This document shows positions 37,686-45,378 of a stretch of 64,000 bases of DNA, in pieces (the first letter of the stretch is position 1; every line of letters starts with the position of its first letter). Below the pieces are notes generated by a model. It worked only from the letters and a program-made list of their open reading frames with translations. It made no database searches and had not been told where the DNA came from. Location: IMG/VR virus record IMGVR_UViG_3300021387_001019, positions 36,934 through 100,933 of that record. One strand, given 5' to 3'. Both the position numbers and the translations under genes were made by a program. The DNA is from a virus (taxonomy: Duplodnaviria > Caudoviricetes).

Positions 37686-38846
37686 ATGAACACAAAGGTT
37701 AAAGTTGTAGTAGGAGGATCGTTTGGTGACGAAGGAAAAGGCCTCGTAACAGATTATTTTTCTTTAGAACCATTTATTAACAAACAAAATATATTAAATG
37801 TGTTATCCAACGGCGGAAGTCAGCGTGGTCATACTGTTTCTTTACCTTCCGGCGAGCGTCATGTATTTCGGCACTTTGGTTCAGGAACATTTCTTGGCGC
37901 CTATACATATTTACCGAAGTATTACATTGTTAACCCTATGAATTATGTTGACGAACTTCGTCAACTGATTAATTGCAAAATACCTATCCATGAAACATAT
38001 ATTCACCCAGATTGTTTACTGACGACGCCGTTTGATATGGTTGCAAATCAAATGATTGAAGAATCTCGTGGAGATCAGCGTCATGGGAGCTGCGGCGTTG
38101 GAATTTGGGAAACCATCCTACGAGATGGAATTACAGTTTGTGAATTTTTTGAGAAATCTGATGAAGAAAAAGCTGAATACTTGCGTTTCGTCAGAGATGA
38201 TTACTTTTCTACGAGAATCTCATCCAAGGGCATTCGTCCAGATAAGGAATGGGAATCGATTATATATAGTCCCTCGTTAATTAGTAATTACATTTATGAT
38301 TTTAACTTAATGATGCGGAATAGCTTGTTTACCGATGATAGTATTTTAAATACATTTGATTATATTATCTTCGAAAATGGTCAGGGGTTGTTGCTTGATC
38401 AAAATATACAGGGTTATGGCAAGAATACAACACCGAGTAACACAGGGTTGAAAAACCCGGCTGAAATGATTAATAAATTACCTAATGATGTAAATGTTGA
38501 AGTGTGTTATGTTACGAGAACTTATATGACTCGTCATGGGGCTGGAAGATTTGATACTGAATATCAACCGGAAAAAATTGGGTTGATTTCTCCGGACAAA
38601 ACAAATCAAACTCATCCGTTCCAGGGCAAATTAAGATATGGTGTTTTGGATTGGAATGCTACTCTCCAGAGAGCAATTGATGATTTTCAGAGGTACGGAA
38701 AACCAGAATGGAATATGTCATTCTTTTTTACTCATACTAATGAGTGCGGAATTCCGTTTGAATATAAAACTAATTTCACAACATACTCATCAGATGGTAT
38801 AACAAGAGATTCCGTAAAAATTATTTATAAGGAGAATAAAAAATGA
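37686..38846 (+). CDS. Adenylosuccinate synthetase (PurA)-like protein
   Basis: FGDEGKG, GGSQRGHT, HGSCGVG, FENGQGLLLD, TTPSNT, TRTYMTRHGAG. Confidence 0.85.
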   Translation: MNTKVKVVVGGSFGDEGKGLVTDYFSLEPFINKQNILNVLSNGGSQRGHTVSLPSGERHVFRHFGSGTFLGAYTYLPKYYIVNPMNYVDELRQLINCKIPIHETYIHPDCLLTTPFDMVANQMIEESRGDQRHGSCGVGIWETILRDGITVCEFFEKSDEEKAEYLRFVRDDYFSTRISSKGIRPDKEWESIIYSPSLISNYIYDFNLMMRNSLFTDDSILNTFDYIIFENGQGLLLDQNIQGYGKNTTPSNTGLKNPAEMINKLPNDVNVEVCYVTRTYMTRHGAGRFDTEYQPEKIGLISPDKTNQTHPFQGKLRYGVLDWNATLQRAIDDFQRYGKPEWNMSFFFTHTNECGIPFEYKTNFTTYSSDGITRDSVKIIYKENKK

Positions 38847-39253
38847 GAATTAATAAGATAAAAATGGATATTGCAACTGTTCCACAGGGATATTGCCTCG
38901 TTGGAGCATTCAGCACAGATATGAAATTTGAAGTTGGAACTCCTGGACTTTTTAACAGGATGTTTGATATTACAAATAGAATTGATGAAAAATGCAAAGT
39001 TGGAACGGCAAAAAGAATTGACAATCTTTATATGCTGTTTGTGAAAGAAAGTAGTTATGACACATTAAATTCTATCAATCTTGCACTGGCACTTGATGAC
39101 CTTCATAAAAAATTGATGAAAAAGAAAGTTAGAAAGATTGCAATGCCAAAGATTTGTTCTGGAAAGAATGGGATTGACTGGGAAGAAGTCGAAGATTATC
39201 TGTTGAATGTTTTCGATGGTGATGATATTGAAATATTAGTATGTGATTATTAA
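38843..39253 (+). CDS. Macrodomain protein (Poa1p/TARG1-like), divergent N-terminal loop
   Basis: IAMPKICSGKNGIDWEEV C-terminal signature; the usual HCISAD..MGAGIA loop is replaced by GAFSTDMKFEVGTP. Confidence 0.65.
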   Translation: MRINKIKMDIATVPQGYCLVGAFSTDMKFEVGTPGLFNRMFDITNRIDEKCKVGTAKRIDNLYMLFVKESSYDTLNSINLALALDDLHKKLMKKKVRKIAMPKICSGKNGIDWEEVEDYLLNVFDGDDIEILVCDY

Positions 39254-39262
39254 GGAGTTGTT

Positions 39263-40489
39263 ATGGAAGACCATAAGCCTAAATATCTTGTGATGGTATC
39301 AAATGCCAACAATAATAAATATTACCGTATGCTCCCCAGTGCTGATGGTTCATCTTTTACGGTCGAGTATGGCAGAATTGGTTCTTCGCAGCAAACAAGA
39401 AGTTATCCCATGTGGGAATGGAATAAGAAATACAATGAGAAACTTCGTAAAGGTTATGTAGATCAAACAGACCTTATGGAAGATTTAATAAGTGTTGTAA
39501 AGGATAAGTCGGTAAAGTCTGAGTATAAAGAAATTGTTGATAAGAAAATCGCAGAAATTGTTAATCGTTTGATGAGTATGGCTCATCAGAAGGTTCAGCA
39601 GAATTATAAAATTGAATCTAATCAAGTTACTCAGGCAATGATTGACAAAGCTCAGGAAATCATCAATAGACTTCTTACAAGAGATAATGTTAATGATTTC
39701 AACAAAGACTTATTGGACTTGTTTGCAGTGATTCCTCGCCGCATGAGTAATGTAAATGATTATCTTTCGAATAAAGTTGATGACTTCGCCAAAATCATTA
39801 AAGATGAACAGGATCTATTGGATGTTATGAGAGGGCAGGTTATTACACATAGGGCTGAAGAACCGGAAGAAGTTGATAATACACCTATCCATGATGAGAC
39901 AATTCTGGAAGCAATGGGCCTCACATTTGAGCCTGTAAATGACGAAGAAATTGACATGATTAAATTAAAGCTTGGCGATTGCAAGGATAAATTTTACCAA
40001 GCTTGGCGAGTTAGCAATAGTAAAACACAAAAGCGCTTCGATGAATTCGTGTCAAAAGAAAATATTAAAGATACAAGGTTATTCTGGCATGGGAGTCGGA
40101 ATGAAAATTGGTGGTCAATTATTAATACTGGGTTAGTGTTAAGACCAACAAATGTTGTTATTACAGGGAAGATGTTTGGATATGGTACGTACTACTCTCC
40201 AAAAGCAAGAAAATCATTAGGATATACATCACTTAGTGGTTCTTACTGGGCGAGAGGTAATTCAAATAGTGCTTTTATGGCTTTGATGGATGTAGCATAT
40301 GGCACACCTTATGATGTGTATTCATTTGACAGCAAATATTCTAGTTTTAATTATGAAGCGCTTCAGAAAGCTTGTCCGGGGGCAAATTCACTTCATGCTC
40401 ATGCAGGAAGCATGTTGAGAAATGATGAAGTAATTGTTTATAAAGAAGAGCAAAGCACTATAAAATATCTTGTAGAATTGAGGAATTAA
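39263..40489 (+). CDS. PARP-like ADP-ribosyltransferase with N-terminal WGR domain
   Basis: NNNKYY..VEYGRIG..K.RKGY (WGR). Catalytic H-Y-E triad: FWHGSR, GKMFGYGTYY, LRNDEVIVY. Confidence 0.9.
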   Translation: MEDHKPKYLVMVSNANNNKYYRMLPSADGSSFTVEYGRIGSSQQTRSYPMWEWNKKYNEKLRKGYVDQTDLMEDLISVVKDKSVKSEYKEIVDKKIAEIVNRLMSMAHQKVQQNYKIESNQVTQAMIDKAQEIINRLLTRDNVNDFNKDLLDLFAVIPRRMSNVNDYLSNKVDDFAKIIKDEQDLLDVMRGQVITHRAEEPEEVDNTPIHDETILEAMGLTFEPVNDEEIDMIKLKLGDCKDKFYQAWRVSNSKTQKRFDEFVSKENIKDTRLFWHGSRNENWWSIINTGLVLRPTNVVITGKMFGYGTYYSPKARKSLGYTSLSGSYWARGNSNSAFMALMDVAYGTPYDVYSFDSKYSSFNYEALQKACPGANSLHAHAGSMLRNDEVIVYKEEQSTIKYLVELRN

Positions 40490-41673: not shown

Positions 41674-42237
41674 CAAACAAAATAATAAAGAGAGGTAATA
41701 AATATGACGGAAAATATGGAGAATAAGATTAAAGAAGTAACAAAAATCACTGCTACACAGGCAAGAGAAGCGACTGATAAGTATCTTAGAGAGCATGATG
41801 CGAAGAAAAATGAGGAGGAACTTAACAGTGTGTATCTTGCAGTTGCAGAGGCATCTTCACAAGGACGTAGGAAAACAAAGATTGACCATGTTCTTTCCCA
41901 GTGGACGATTGATAAACTGAAAGAGGATGGTTATAAAATCAATTATATATTCGATTCTATCGCCGACATTTTCTGGTATGATAGCATTTGGAAAACAGCA
42001 AAAACACTGATTGAATGGTAATGGTTTGAAACGACATTTTCATCGGATATAAATGTTGCCATGCTCAAATGGCTGCGGTGCGAATGTAGAGTGAACATGA
42101 AAGTATAAGGACATTCGCACTGAAATTTAATATCATATCTGATATGATGTTTTATCTATATTAAAAATGATTTATTATTTTATCGTACATTGACAAATGA
42201 AATAATTAAAATGCACGAAATGTTGTGTGTTTTTGCT

Positions 42238-42610
42238 GATACATTTCGTGTATATGCGTAAACACCAAACCTGTTTGGATCTTCGAGACACGCTTGATGA
42301 CTTTGCGATACATTTCGTGTATATGCGTAAACACCAAACAAGCGAGCCGTTTCAATCCCTTCTTTAGTCATCGATGCATTTCGTGCGTGTGCGTAAATAC
42401 CAAACGTAAGTTCTTTCATGATTTGTATCTCTCTTTTCATGATGCATTTTGTGCATATGCGTAAACACCAAACCGTATGACCCATGCAGTAGAGGCAAAA
42501 GCGGTTGCGATGCATTTCGTACTAGTGCGTAAACACCAAACTTTTTAAGCTTCTTTTGTGCTTCTTTTAAAATTGATGCATTTCGTATATGCTGAATAAA
42601 ATTACCAGAC
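42238..42610 (+). CRISPR. CRISPR array: five 33-bp repeats plus one degenerate terminal repeat; five spacers of 36, 33, 35, 35 and 33 bp
   Basis: Repeats at 42238, 42307, 42373, 42441 and 42509 (first two: GATACATTTCGTGTATATGCGTAAACACCAAAC). Degenerate copy at 42575-42610. AT-rich leader on the left. Confidence 0.95.
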
Positions 42611-42709
42611 TCTGTTTGGTTGAATATTGCAACAATATTCTGAAGTCTGTAGTAAACAGACAAAGCCAATATAGTGAGGGGAAACCACTCACTAAAGTTT
42701 ACGCTTTTT
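42611..42709 (+). ncRNA. Predicted tracrRNA between the array and the cas12 gene
   Basis: Split anti-repeat GTTTGGT (42614-42620) and GTTTACGC (42697-42704) complementary to the repeat 3' half GCGTAAAC-ACCAAAC; three hairpins between them; ends in a T-tract. Confidence 0.75.
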
Positions 42710-42723
42710 ATAGGAGGTTAAAA

Positions 42724-44478
42724 TTGAAGAATAAAGAATTTACCAATGCATTAACAAGACACATTAGATTAATTCCTGAAGTTGCGGATGATATTAAAAA
42801 TGATGAAAATATTTTCAAAAAGTATCTTGATGAAAGATATGAATATATTAGAAATGGCAGATATGCCGGAAATAAAGGATTCAATTTAGTCCTTTCCGCT
42901 ACTTCGAGAGCAAAATATCTTGGGCAGAGTCAGGATGAGATTGGTGAGATATTTTATTCGTATAGTCATAGCGGGAATGATGTTGTTTCGGGATTTAGCG
43001 TAGATAAATTAAAATACTTAAAACAACTGGCACCGATTACAGAAGAAGTAATTCAGAATGAATTGAAAAAATATAAAAGCGCAATAAAACGAAACAAAAA
43101 AAATGATGGAGATGAACTAACGAAAACTGATAAAAAGAAAATTGAAGCTGAAGAAAAGAAATTAAGAAAATTTCTTGATGCAACAGAAGAAGATATTCAG
43201 TTTGAAATAAATAAAAAACAACAATACAACAAGTTCCCGGAAGATTTAAATGATAAATGGATGAATGGATGTAAGCAGCCACAGAGAATCGTTAAAAGAG
43301 TTGAGGACTTTTGGAAAAGTTCGTTAGGCGACGATGTTTTGGCTGGCAGATCTTCTTTGCCAATTAGAAGACTTGACGCACCAATCATTCTTCCAAAAGA
43401 TTTATTTTATGATTCAAACAAAAAAACATTTACTGGACTGTATCATAATTATGGTGATTTAACTAAAAAAATATTAACAGATAAAAATCCAGAGGTGTTT
43501 TTAAAGTTGCCATATAAAAAAGATGCACCACCTATGGTTTTTAAAATGGATCTTGGCTATAAGCCAAATAACGTTGTTAGAGATTTTATATATAAAATTT
43601 TTATTGGTGAAATTGAAATCATGGACTGCCAGATGAATTTTACAGAAAACAAAAAGACTCACAAAGATACTGATTTGACTTTATTTTTAACTGGAGAAAT
43701 TCTTAAAAAGAAAGAACATAACCTTGATTATGATAAAGTTATGGGGATTGATTTGGGGTGGAATAATCCTGTAAGCTGGGCTGTGAATTATGACACTTTT
43801 ACACATGATTTTTTAGGCGATATTGAATATAAGAATAAGAAACTTGCAAAAATAGACAAAGAAATTAATGATTTAAGAAAAAGTGTTGCCGATCATGCAA
43901 AGGGCGGTCATGGCTATAAAAGAAAGTGTGAGGCGCTCTTAAAAGCAAAATCATATAAGAGAAATTTTAACAAAACATTTAATGACAGATTAAGTTCTAA
44001 AGTTATACAAACATGTATAAAATTAGGAATTGGAACTATTAAAATGGAAGATCTTTCTGATATTGGAAAGAAAATTAATGGTAAAGGGATATCAAAAGAT
44101 GATGATGAGTTTAAGAATAAAATTATGGCAAACTGGTGTTATTACGAATTACAGCAGATGATTCAATATAAAGCAGCTTTAAACGGAATTGAAGTGTATT
44201 ATATTAATCCCGCATATACATCTCAAACATGTGCATTTTGTGGGCAGAGGGGTATTCGTGGTGTATTTGATAAAAATGGAAAAATGATAGATTCGTCTAA
44301 ATTTTTTTGCATACATGATTTATGTGAAAGCCATAAGATTAATTGGAAAAATGGTGCAATTAATGCTGATAGAAATGCAGCGATGGTTATTGCTAAATCT
44401 GAGGATTATGTGGGAAGTCGTAATGAAGGTCTTTGGAGAAGGAATGTGGGCAAAGATATTAATAAAAATATCGCCTGA
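42724..44478 (+). CDS. cas12f: Compact type V CRISPR effector, Cas12f/TnpB-like (~584 aa)
   Basis: RuvC-I MGIDLG, RuvC-II IKMEDLS, YINPAYTSQTCAFCG, FFCIHDLC, RuvC-III NADRNAA. TTG start after GGAGG (42713-42717), in frame with the track ORF. Subtype assignment is tentative. Confidence 0.88.
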   Translation: MKNKEFTNALTRHIRLIPEVADDIKNDENIFKKYLDERYEYIRNGRYAGNKGFNLVLSATSRAKYLGQSQDEIGEIFYSYSHSGNDVVSGFSVDKLKYLKQLAPITEEVIQNELKKYKSAIKRNKKNDGDELTKTDKKKIEAEEKKLRKFLDATEEDIQFEINKKQQYNKFPEDLNDKWMNGCKQPQRIVKRVEDFWKSSLGDDVLAGRSSLPIRRLDAPIILPKDLFYDSNKKTFTGLYHNYGDLTKKILTDKNPEVFLKLPYKKDAPPMVFKMDLGYKPNNVVRDFIYKIFIGEIEIMDCQMNFTENKKTHKDTDLTLFLTGEILKKKEHNLDYDKVMGIDLGWNNPVSWAVNYDTFTHDFLGDIEYKNKKLAKIDKEINDLRKSVADHAKGGHGYKRKCEALLKAKSYKRNFNKTFNDRLSSKVIQTCIKLGIGTIKMEDLSDIGKKINGKGISKDDDEFKNKIMANWCYYELQQMIQYKAALNGIEVYYINPAYTSQTCAFCGQRGIRGVFDKNGKMIDSSKFFCIHDLCESHKINWKNGAINADRNAAMVIAKSEDYVGSRNEGLWRRNVGKDINKNIA

Positions 44479-44541
44479 TGAAAAATCACTTTCATTGGAA
44501 AATAACAAATAAAATAATAAATAATTAAGGAGTGTAATATT

Positions 44542-45378
44542 ATGCCAGTGCATGATCAGATTGGTATTCGTATGAAAGAATACTACGAACAAATCCCTAA
44601 AACAAAACTTATGCGCCGTTGCCCGGTTGTTTGCCGGGTTGACGGCAAGTCATTCCATAGTTTCACTAAAGGGTTTAAAAAACCATTTGATGAATTATTA
44701 ATCCAGTCTATGCAGGAAACAATGAAATACCTATGTGAAAACATCCAAGGATGTGTACTTGGGTATCAGCAAAGCGATGAGATAAGCTTGTTACTTATTG
44801 ATTATAAAACCTTAGAATCACAGGCATTCTTTGATTATGAAGTCCAAAAGATATGTAGCATTACTGCCTCGATGGCAACGATGGCGTTCAATAGATTTTT
44901 AACAAATAATTATCAACAGTGGATTAAAGAAACTATTCCAGAAGATAAATTAATGGAATCTTCAAACTTACTTAATTATAAAGAGGAATTGATACTTAGT
45001 ACAGTTTATTTTAAAGCAATAGATAAAGGCGCAATGTTTGATGCACGCTGCTTTAATATTCCAAAAGAAGAGGTAACAAACTATTTCTACTGGCGACAGC
45101 TTGATGCAACACGCAATTCAATCCAGATGGTTGGTCAGGCAAATTTCAGTCATAAAGAACTTCAGAATAAATCTTGTAATGAGATCCAGGATATGCTTCA
45201 TGAACAAAGGGGTATTAACTGGAATGATTTCCCCGTGTATCAAAAGCGCGGAAGTTGCTGTATCAAAGTTAATGAACTCGTAAATGATACAATTAGAGGT
45301 AAATGGATTATTGATAAGAAAATTCCGATTTTCAAGGATAACGGCAGAGAATATATTGATCAGTATGTTCTTATATGA
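44542..45378 (+). CDS. tRNA(His) guanylyltransferase Thg1-like protein (3'-5' polymerase)
   Basis: RMKEYYE, RVDGKSFHSFT, YQQSDEIS, FDAR, WRQLDATRNS. Confidence 0.93.
   Translation: MPVHDQIGIRMKEYYEQIPKTKLMRRCPVVCRVDGKSFHSFTKGFKKPFDELLIQSMQETMKYLCENIQGCVLGYQQSDEISLLLIDYKTLESQAFFDYEVQKICSITASMATMAFNRFLTNNYQQWIKETIPEDKLMESSNLLNYKEELILSTVYFKAIDKGAMFDARCFNIPKEEVTNYFYWRQLDATRNSIQMVGQANFSHKELQNKSCNEIQDMLHEQRGINWNDFPVYQKRGSCCIKVNELVNDTIRGKWIIDKKIPIFKDNGREYIDQYVLI

Follow-up and report, generated by a model that had tools for sequence, protein, structure and literature searches.

Within a 64,000-nt window of viral DNA (bases 36934-100933 of the 100,933-bp IMG/VR virus record IMGVR_UViG_3300021387_001019; coordinates below are those of the window), we analyzed a locus in which a CRISPR array, a predicted trans-activating CRISPR RNA (tracrRNA) and a cas12f-like nuclease gene follow one another on the plus strand (Table 1). 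The record is linear, has a G+C content of 35.6% and is ~52% complete according to CheckV, from which the phage genome is estimated at roughly 200 kb. An earlier note, made from the sequence alone, had described here a compact type V system consisting of a five-spacer array, a ~100-nt structured intergenic RNA acting as tracrRNA and a Cas12f-like nuclease of ~584 aa. We assessed its assignment to type V-F by an adjacent array, a tracrRNA anti-repeat pairing with the 3′ part of the repeat, a split RuvC domain, a zinc ribbon, a miniature size and proximity to validated Cas12f enzymes.

The array comprises five 33-nt repeats and a degenerate sixth, with a start-to-start spacing of 69, 66, 68 and 68 nt and five spacers of 36, 33, 35, 35 and 33 nt that show no mutual relatedness. 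It lies 150 nt 5′ of the nuclease gene on the same strand, and no further copy of the repeat occurs elsewhere in the 100.9-kb record. Repeat 2 is an exact copy of repeat 1, and 2-5 positions are changed in each of repeats 3-5. These changes avoid the 3′ part that pairs with the tracrRNA, a sign of selection on the array: 7 of 18 columns vary in the 5′ part vs 1 of 15 in the 3′ part (Fisher p = 0.046), and the sole 3′ change, C to T in repeat 3, retains a G:U pair with the tracrRNA. A separate 6-bp hairpin is formed within the repeat's 5′ half and carries one compensatory change from A:U to G:C between repeats 1-2 and repeats 3-4. Degenerate repeats usually stand at the leader-distal end of an array. 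The identity of repeats 1 and 2, together with the degenerate copy at the gene end, thus suggests a leader 5′ of repeat 1 and transcription of the plus strand. The putative leader region holds only weak sigma-70-like matches (42108-42136 and 42120-42148), which are no commoner than in shuffled sequences.

The structured intergenic RNA was likewise recovered in silico. The interval 42575-42715 folds at -36.8 kcal/mol (z = -3.96), a stability equaled by none of 200 shuffled sequences. Co-folding of a 108-nt RNA with each repeat yielded a split duplex, of 7 bp and 8 bp, with the last 15 nt of the repeat, so that the predicted RNA carries an anti-repeat to the repeat's 3′ part. For repeat 4, the change in folding free energy (ddG) was -11.4 kcal/mol, compared with -2.7 +/- 2.0 in 300 shuffled repeats, none of which was as low. 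Anti-repeat 2, GTTTACGC, occurs once on the plus strand of the window, and the ordered pair of anti-repeats arose in 1 of 2000 shuffled 5-kb neighborhoods. This layout matches the one described for Cas12-type tracrRNAs, in which the 5′ end of the tracrRNA provides the duplex or pseudoknot next to the guide and its 3′ end provides another duplex; a guide-proximal AAAC:UUUG pseudoknot is reported to be characteristic of Cas12 tracrRNAs (bioRxiv 10.1101/2025.01.20.633832). Rfam returned no match at gathering thresholds except two tRNAs, and none credible in 42100-42760 at E ≤ 5. A promoter-like site at 42573-42602 (TTGATG, 18 nt, TAAAAT) overlaps the degenerate repeat and would initiate transcription a few bases 5′ of anti-repeat 1; with 9 of 12 positions matched, no better than chance, we treat it as a lead only.

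Among the array-bearing relatives described below, five carry anti-repeat 1 followed by anti-repeat 2 directly beside the array (Bacteroidales loci L110, L116, L123 and L128, and L144 from an unclassified bacterium). There the pair lies in the ~80-140 nt before the array and after the cas12f end, with its halves ~34-50 nt apart, which suggests a shorter or gene-overlapping tracrRNA. Such ordered pairs were found anywhere in the 8-kb relative loci in 19 cases, vs 18 for an order-swapped control; in the relatives, only the position of the pair right beside the array is suggestive.

The 3′ end of the degenerate repeat (ACCAGAC) is able to pair in cis with anti-repeat 1. As a separate observation, the repeat-1/spacer-1 junction (42256-42282; ACCAAAC, C, TGTTTGG) is mirrored where the degenerate repeat meets the tracrRNA (42601-42622; ACCAGAC, TC, TGTTTGG), and at both the repeat end is able to fold back in cis on GTTTGG (rough post hoc chance ~0.004). 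Fold-back on spacer 1 would mimic or compete with anti-repeat 1, and the mirrored junctions may be a trace of an origin of the tracrRNA or the array by duplication, or a cis gate.

A long open reading frame (ORF) starting at ATG 42589 spans the degenerate repeat and the tracrRNA. We place the real start at TTG 42724, as had been proposed, because AGGAGG stands 6 nt 5′ of it, the public gene call P0002 is an identical 584-aa protein, and Met-1 of the homolog P0003 aligns to residue 1. The protein (P0001) is of miniature size, within the range of 400-700 aa quoted for Cas12f (bioRxiv 10.64898/2026.04.20.719267). All three catalytic acids and the zinc-ribbon cysteines that had been noted are present: D343, E442 and D549, the triad of the split RuvC, align to the catalytic positions of Al3Cas12f and are invariant or nearly so in 50 relatives, and the zinc ribbon is matched by PF07282 (Cas12f1-like TNB; E = 3e-14, 53.4 bits vs a 26.3-bit cut-off). 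PF01385 gave a sub-threshold match. An AlphaFold2 (AF2) model built on a 50-sequence alignment, with a predicted local distance difference test score (pLDDT) of 87.9 and a predicted template modeling score (pTM) of 0.72, is ordered as one WED strand, an all-helical REC lobe, the other WED strands, and RuvC with the zinc ribbon; these domain names are given by analogy to solved Cas12f structures. The long Lys/Glu-rich segment pointed out in the N-terminal half (residues ~107-166) is helical in the model and conserved in two homologs of 68-73% identity; it therefore belongs to the larger REC lobe and is neither a linker nor low-complexity filler. Prediction of a two-copy complex for residues 1-340 with a 50-row alignment gave a score of 0.00 (mark 0.42), which counts neither for nor against a homodimer.

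When sequences of solved structures were searched, all significant matches were Cas12f enzymes. The best was Al3Cas12f (E = 5.6e-35, over residues 275-569), followed by SpCas12f1, AsCas12f (8j1j/8j12/8j3r, 7wju, 8dzj), OsCas12f, CnCas12f1, RhCas12f and Un1Cas12f. CasPhi-3 matched marginally, in the RuvC core only (E = 4.8e-4), and no solved TnpB matched at E ≤ 1. Foldseek with the AF2 model put CnCas12f1 at the top (1.4e-22), ahead of Al3, As, Sp, Os and Un1Cas12f, and reached Cas12m2, Cas12p and TnpB only at 1e-10 to 1e-9. Of the NCBIfam hidden Markov models (HMMs), only the generic guided_TnpB passed (107.4 vs 100 bits), a model that matches Cas12f-type proteins such as the phage nuclease; IS200_TnpB (NF038281) failed (29.9 vs 425 bits).

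Close relatives are few. Among 5.8 billion 90% clusters we found two, both from short metagenomic contigs: P0003 (591 aa, 70-73% identical to the phage nuclease depending on the method) and P0004 (563 aa, 68%). Among 1.84 billion 50% representatives (~15 billion proteins), 24 cluster representatives were retrieved at E ≤ 1e-30, and the next relative, P0135 (559 aa), was 34% identical in a near end-to-end alignment; outside the three-member clade, identity is at most 36%. IMG/VR and JGI metagenome contigs contained no close relative, only TnpB-like matches of 25-31% identity. A survey of one genome per GTDB species gave 80 loci. A CRISPR array was present in the fetched stretch for 43 of the 54 best-scoring ones (L099-L152), usually directly 3′ of the gene, in gut Bacteroidaceae and Prevotellaceae, Lachnospiraceae, Clostridium and a Paenibacillaceae/Alicyclobacillaceae group, whereas the other 26, mostly cyanobacterial and Methanothrix, had none.

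In a maximum-likelihood tree of 91 sequences, from which eight short fragments were left out, the phage clade (three members) was monophyletic with 100% support on a stem of 1.03 substitutions per site. With 99% support in the Shimodaira-Hasegawa-like approximate likelihood ratio test (SH-aLRT), it was nested in a group of Bacillota whose members include Lachnospiraceae genes with an array; a Clostridium group adjoined it, then a Bacteroidales group (19/22 with arrays), and 21 array-less cyanobacterial and archaeal TnpB-like genes formed a distant outgroup. An adjacent array accompanies 40 of the 72 genomic relatives placed in the tree, and P0007 and P0135, from the surrounding group, match CnCas12f1, RhCas12f and Al3Cas12f at 1e-40 to 1e-61. 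By sequence, predicted fold and phylogeny, the nuclease is closest to validated Cas12f, as expected of type V-F, and the phylogenetic placement asked for in the earlier note puts it with array-associated Cas12f, far from the array-less TnpB group. The same note had suggested a distinct clade; what stands is a rare, long-branch sub-lineage of three members, and the tree places it inside the known Cas12f radiation, not beside it.

Table 1 Features of the CRISPR locus and its surroundings (positions in the 64,000-nt window).
Feature	Position	Strand	Remarks
Putative leader, AT-rich	42100-42237	+	placed by array polarity
Array core, 33-nt repeats	42238-42541	+	n = 5; repeats at 42238, 42307, 42373, 42441, 42509
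Spacers 1-4	42271-42306, 42340-42372, 42406-42440, 42474-42508	+	
Spacer 5, 33 nt	42542-42574	+	T-rich
Degenerate terminal (sixth) repeat	42575-42610	+	gene-proximal end
Repeat segment GCGTAAAC			part joinable to 42704 in a tracr-crRNA fusion
Predicted tracrRNA, ~100 nt	42611-42710	+	between array and gene
Anti-repeat 1, GTTTGGT	42614-42620	+	exact complement of the repeat's last 7 nt
tracrRNA hairpins (predicted)	42622-42640, 42645-42661, 42672-42694	+	between both anti-repeats
Anti-repeat 2	42697-42704	+	exact complement of the 8 nt before the repeat's last 7
U5 run	42705-42709	+	after anti-repeat 2
Ribosome-binding site, AGGAGG	42712-42717	+	
cas12f-like gene, 584 aa (P0001)	42724-44478	+	TTG start to stop
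Enlarged all-helical REC lobe (predicted), residues ~22-206	42787-43341	+	inserted after first WED strand; AF2 helices H28-65 through H200-206
RuvC-I catalytic Asp343 (GIDLG)	43750-43752	+	
RuvC-II catalytic Glu442 (MEDL)	44047-44049	+	invariant in 50 sequences
Zinc-ribbon/TNB insertion, Cys503, 506, 529, 534	44230-44325	+	all four Cys invariant (50-sequence alignment)
RuvC-III catalytic Asp549 (NADRN)	44368-44370	+	
Palindrome T(A/G)AAA-N6-TTT(C/T)A	42027-42042, 44479-44494; 3700, 9465, 17626, 19240, 53694, 57878, 58670		
Thg1-like tRNA-His guanylyltransferase	44542-45378	+	directly 3′ of cas12f; PF04446, 4e-30
Nucleoside deoxyribosyltransferase		+	upstream of CRISPR module
DnaE-type polymerase, DnaB, NAD-dependent ligase		+	neighbors; PHROG matches
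PurA/PurZ-like adenylosuccinate synthetase, macro domain protein, WGR-PARP protein		+	further neighbors

The absence of cas1 and cas2 from the window, stated before, extends to the remainder of the record and to Cas4; as the record is ~52% complete, this result covers the record alone, and adaptation genes may lie in the missing half or so of the genome. Of five relatives examined, each either lacked Cas1 in its genome or had it at a great distance from cas12f, so that interference-only loci are not confined to the phage. Nor did the 100.9-kb record contain a TnpA/Y1 transposase, and it holds a single PF07282 gene. The 3′ core of the repeat gave 92 single matches and no array in IMG/VR, and 14 single one-mismatch matches and no array in the sampled genomes (n = 401) of the class to which G005 belongs (a Clostridium metagenome-assembled genome), about the level of a reversed-pattern control.

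We also considered the idea of a mobile cassette. A perfect 14-nt inverted repeat flanks the module (42170-42183, minus; 44509-44522, plus) within a 37-nt pair that is 76% complementary, but at least three matches to the 14-mer were found in 6 of 100 shuffles, so that chance in AT-rich spacers is possible. The window holds 9 copies of the palindrome T(A/G)AAA-N6-TTT(C/T)A vs 2.3 expected, and none of 100 shuffles reached 9. At least some of its sites lie just past a stop codon, including the two that bracket the module (42027-42042 and 44479-44494). Since it recurs at other gene boundaries, the palindrome looks like a signal marking boundaries across the phage (a terminator, an operator or a site of recombination) rather than element ends, and together with the inverted repeat it makes unconvincing ends for a cassette, an idea that we rejected.

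Taken as a whole, the locus is probably an intact tracrRNA-dependent type V-F (Cas12f-family) interference module that the phage turns against other DNA inside the cell it infects. The array would be transcribed on the plus strand from 5′ of repeat 1, and the last 15 nt of each repeat would pair with both anti-repeat halves of the ~100-nt tracrRNA, anti-repeat 1 giving the guide-proximal duplex or pseudoknot and anti-repeat 2 the distal duplex. The 584-aa nuclease would bind this dual RNA, and its RuvC site (D343/E442/D549) would cut double-stranded DNA that matches the 3′ spacer part and is flanked by a protospacer-adjacent motif (PAM). Without Cas1, Cas2 and Cas4, the module would interfere only, with spacers that may be supplied in trans by host Cas1-Cas2, and its small, old-looking spacer set would most likely be aimed at rival mobile elements of the same host, namely other phages, satellites or plasmids.

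The spacers themselves suggest a foreign source: spacers 1, 2 and 4 have a G+C content of 45-54% vs 35.6% for the phage, pointing to a different genome. All five can be read without a stop codon in one or more frames of the reverse complement, and in the reverse complements of spacers 2 and 3 an ATG stands at or within one base of the start with an open frame after it, an observation made post hoc on five spacers.

Several results weigh against an intact interference module of type V-F. No protospacer was found for any spacer in the phage's own genome at up to 8 mismatches or at the peptide level, nor for the whole array in PLSDB plasmids or, by blastn, in INPHARED phages, where one weak low-complexity match (E = 0.03) was judged to be chance. 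The IMG/VR scans, which covered four of the five spacers, were also negative, both when spacers 1 and 4 were sought by exact 24-nt seeds and when the reverse complements of spacers 2 and 3 were sought by codon-degenerate patterns. Heterogeneity among the repeats is unusually high (up to 5/33 differences); repeat 5 has lost the 5′ hairpin and co-folds more weakly with the tracrRNA (ddG = -5.6), features that fit an old array which no longer gains spacers and may have decayed in part. A search of the array and tracrRNA revealed no canonical promoter or intrinsic terminator above chance. As for the protein, guided_TnpB is the sole NCBIfam model passed, and the score against Cas12f2 (NF049972) is far under the cut-off (64.7 vs 450 bits), for which reason identity with Cas12f2 was rejected.

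Some of these results would also fit a decaying relic, in which a module captured from a Bacillota host lies unused, the array is a fossil and the gene is intact through recent capture or another role. The heterogeneous repeats, the degenerate terminal repeat and the weakened repeat 5 agree with this, as do the missing adaptation genes, the lack of a target in any search and the lack of a clear promoter. We nevertheless regard a relic as unlikely: no stop interrupts the 584-aa frame, in which every catalytic and zinc residue is retained, two other lineages have kept the entire protein, REC lobe included, at 68-73% identity, which implies purifying selection, the repeat changes spare the tracr-pairing part or compensate within it, and missing protospacers are the norm for metagenomic spacers. 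The spacers raise a different possibility, namely gene control instead of DNA destruction, with CRISPR RNAs (crRNAs) directed to the 5′ ends of genes and shutting down host functions or early genes of competitors. The stop-free frames, the resemblance of spacers 2 and 3 to gene starts and the high G+C content of three spacers, which indicates another genome, speak for it. This is nonetheless rather improbable, given that the RuvC triad is intact, unlike in known TnpB/Cas12 repressor derivatives, that two of five spacers at gene starts is a post hoc count on very few spacers, and that the IMG/VR patterns for spacers 2 and 3 found no matching gene.

Readings that dispense with the CRISPR system altogether fare worse. 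An IS200/IS605-type TnpB working with its own omega-RNA beside unrelated repeats could draw on the passed guided_TnpB model, the weak PF01385 match, the flanking inverted repeat and the TGAAA-N6-TTTCA palindromes. It is largely refuted and very improbable: the record has no TnpA and one copy of the gene, the IS200_TnpB model failed, the repeats are exactly complementary to an RNA encoded beside the gene, the protein falls within array-associated Cas12f in the tree, the 63-nt spacer downstream is too short to hold an omega-RNA scaffold outside the gene, and the palindrome stands at other gene boundaries as well. That the array is instead a tandem-repeat coding region on the minus strand, where ORFs of 111 and 101 aa (42180-42515 and 42364-42669) span the repeats, is refuted by unit lengths of 69, 66, 68 and 68 nt, which break the frame, and we give it next to no credence; conserved 33-nt blocks split by unrelated 33-36-nt sequences are CRISPR geometry, and the neighboring genes are all on the plus strand. 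Finally, in a more far-reaching version that we think improbable, the three-member phage clade would be a functionally distinct Cas12f offshoot in which the enlarged REC lobe and an array-tracr-cas layout on a single transcript alter guide assembly. The degenerate last repeat would fold in cis on anti-repeat 1, with the repeat-1/spacer-1 junction mimicking this fold-back, possible outcomes would be a monomeric effector or a cis-gated tracrRNA, and the spacers would target the start-codon regions of genes in the host or in rivals, serving takeover and not classical immunity.

Among known systems, the proposed Cas12f module most resembles the CnCas12f1/RhCas12f/Al3Cas12f group (PDB 8hr5, 9nzp, 9nzo/9nzr; PMC13186708), with which it shares the RuvC and zinc-ribbon core, the order WED-REC-WED-RuvC and, by prediction, tracrRNA dependence with the guide at the crRNA 3′ end. 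The repeat and spacer geometry is also similar (~33-36-nt repeats, ~66-nt period), and the tree places the phage clade in the same Bacillota radiation. The phage nuclease is longer (584 aa vs 415-508 aa), the extra length lying N-terminal to RuvC-I and including the larger REC. Its locus has the order array-tracr-cas, whereas in most relatives the array is 3′ of the gene, and it is borne by a phage, whereas the CnCas12f1/RhCas12f/Al3Cas12f group is found on bacterial chromosomes.

As the earlier note had stated, compact type V effectors of phages usually lack adaptation genes: Cas12f/Cas14-clade loci of huge phages and other viral compact type V loci also have a compact array, no co-occurring cas genes and no Cas1/Cas2/Cas4 (PMC11748809; PMC12676247), with a median of 5 spacers in the huge-phage arrays (PMC11748809), and 84% of phage CRISPR systems are without Cas1/2/4 (PMC12676247). 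Compared by description only, the soil huge-phage proteins are ~700 aa and cluster with Cas14u.5, whereas the 584-aa phage nuclease groups with gut/anaerobe Bacillota Cas12f. Cas12p ("Cas12 hacker"; bioRxiv 10.1101/2025.01.20.633832; PDB 9jfs) shares with it a phage origin, a size of 500-700 aa, a tracrRNA and the AAAC:UUUG guide-proximal pseudoknot near the tracrRNA 5′ end, but carries a beta-stranded thioredoxin-binding insert in a REC that is predicted to be all helical in the phage nuclease, and differs in catalytic numbering and C-terminal domain. Identity with Cas12p was rejected, as phmmer gave no sequence match at E ≤ 1 and Foldseek placed it at rank 24 (2.3e-10, 13% identity). CasPhi (Cas12j) and Cas12r, too, are type V systems of phages with one effector and a small array, and they lack an adaptation module. 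Cas12r uses a crRNA only, with no tracrRNA, and CasPhi is likewise not known to use a tracrRNA. A CasPhi/Cas12j identity (crRNA-only, ~700-800 aa) was rejected on account of the anti-repeat RNA, the length of 584 aa and the marginal match to CasPhi-3. With IS200/IS605 TnpB the nuclease has common ancestry, reflected in the passed guided_TnpB HMM and the shared WED/REC/RuvC/zinc-ribbon layout, but the phage locus differs in its single copy without TnpA, its adjoining array and separate tracrRNA, and its distance in the tree.

The module sits in a nucleotide-metabolism region of a large phage as accessory cargo. The phage context proposed earlier was supported by PHROG matches to a DnaE-type polymerase, DnaB, a Thg1-like protein and an NAD-dependent ligase. 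The closest cultured relative of the polymerase is that of Clostridioides phage pCD1602_4 (44% identity), followed by large Bacillus siphophages, which fits a Bacillota/Clostridia-type host and agrees with the nuclease protein tree. The Thg1-like gene is common to 48 large IMG/VR phages (46-74% identity), none of which has a Cas12f homolog within 8 kb of it, indicating that the CRISPR module is lineage-specific accessory cargo.

Two further observations concern the neighborhood. The adenylosuccinate-synthetase homolog (37686-38846, 386 aa) is a short form that matches PF00709 at 104 bits and phrog_1211 at 3.9e-53, which we take to correspond to the PurZ-type enzyme, and 11 of the 48 related loci have a homolog at most ~8 kb away from the Thg1-like gene. 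Should the enzyme of the phage prove to be a true PurZ, its DNA may be made with 2-aminoadenine (Z). Just 5′ of the CRISPR module, 38843-40489 encodes a macro-domain-like protein (sub-threshold, 21.5 vs 22 bits) and then a WGR + PARP catalytic-domain protein (PF00644, 8e-22), an ADP-ribosylation writer/eraser pair.

Since compact type V systems without adaptation genes have already been described in phages (PMC11748809; PMC12676247; bioRxiv 10.1101/2025.01.20.633832), the locus represents a new sub-lineage and not a new kind of system, and will not surprise a specialist. What is notable is the enlarged REC lobe, the array-tracr-cas order and the fact that its RNA parts are fully readable. Because all of these parts can be identified from the sequence, the system is directly testable as a compact genome editor, and the ~1.75-kb gene with its ~100-nt tracrRNA is a good candidate for screening; in Al3Cas12f, extension of the REC has been associated with increased editing activity (PMC13186708). 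For phage biology, it adds one more large phage that carries an interference-only CRISPR module as accessory cargo, and the targets of such modules, once found, would tell phage-phage competition from host takeover.

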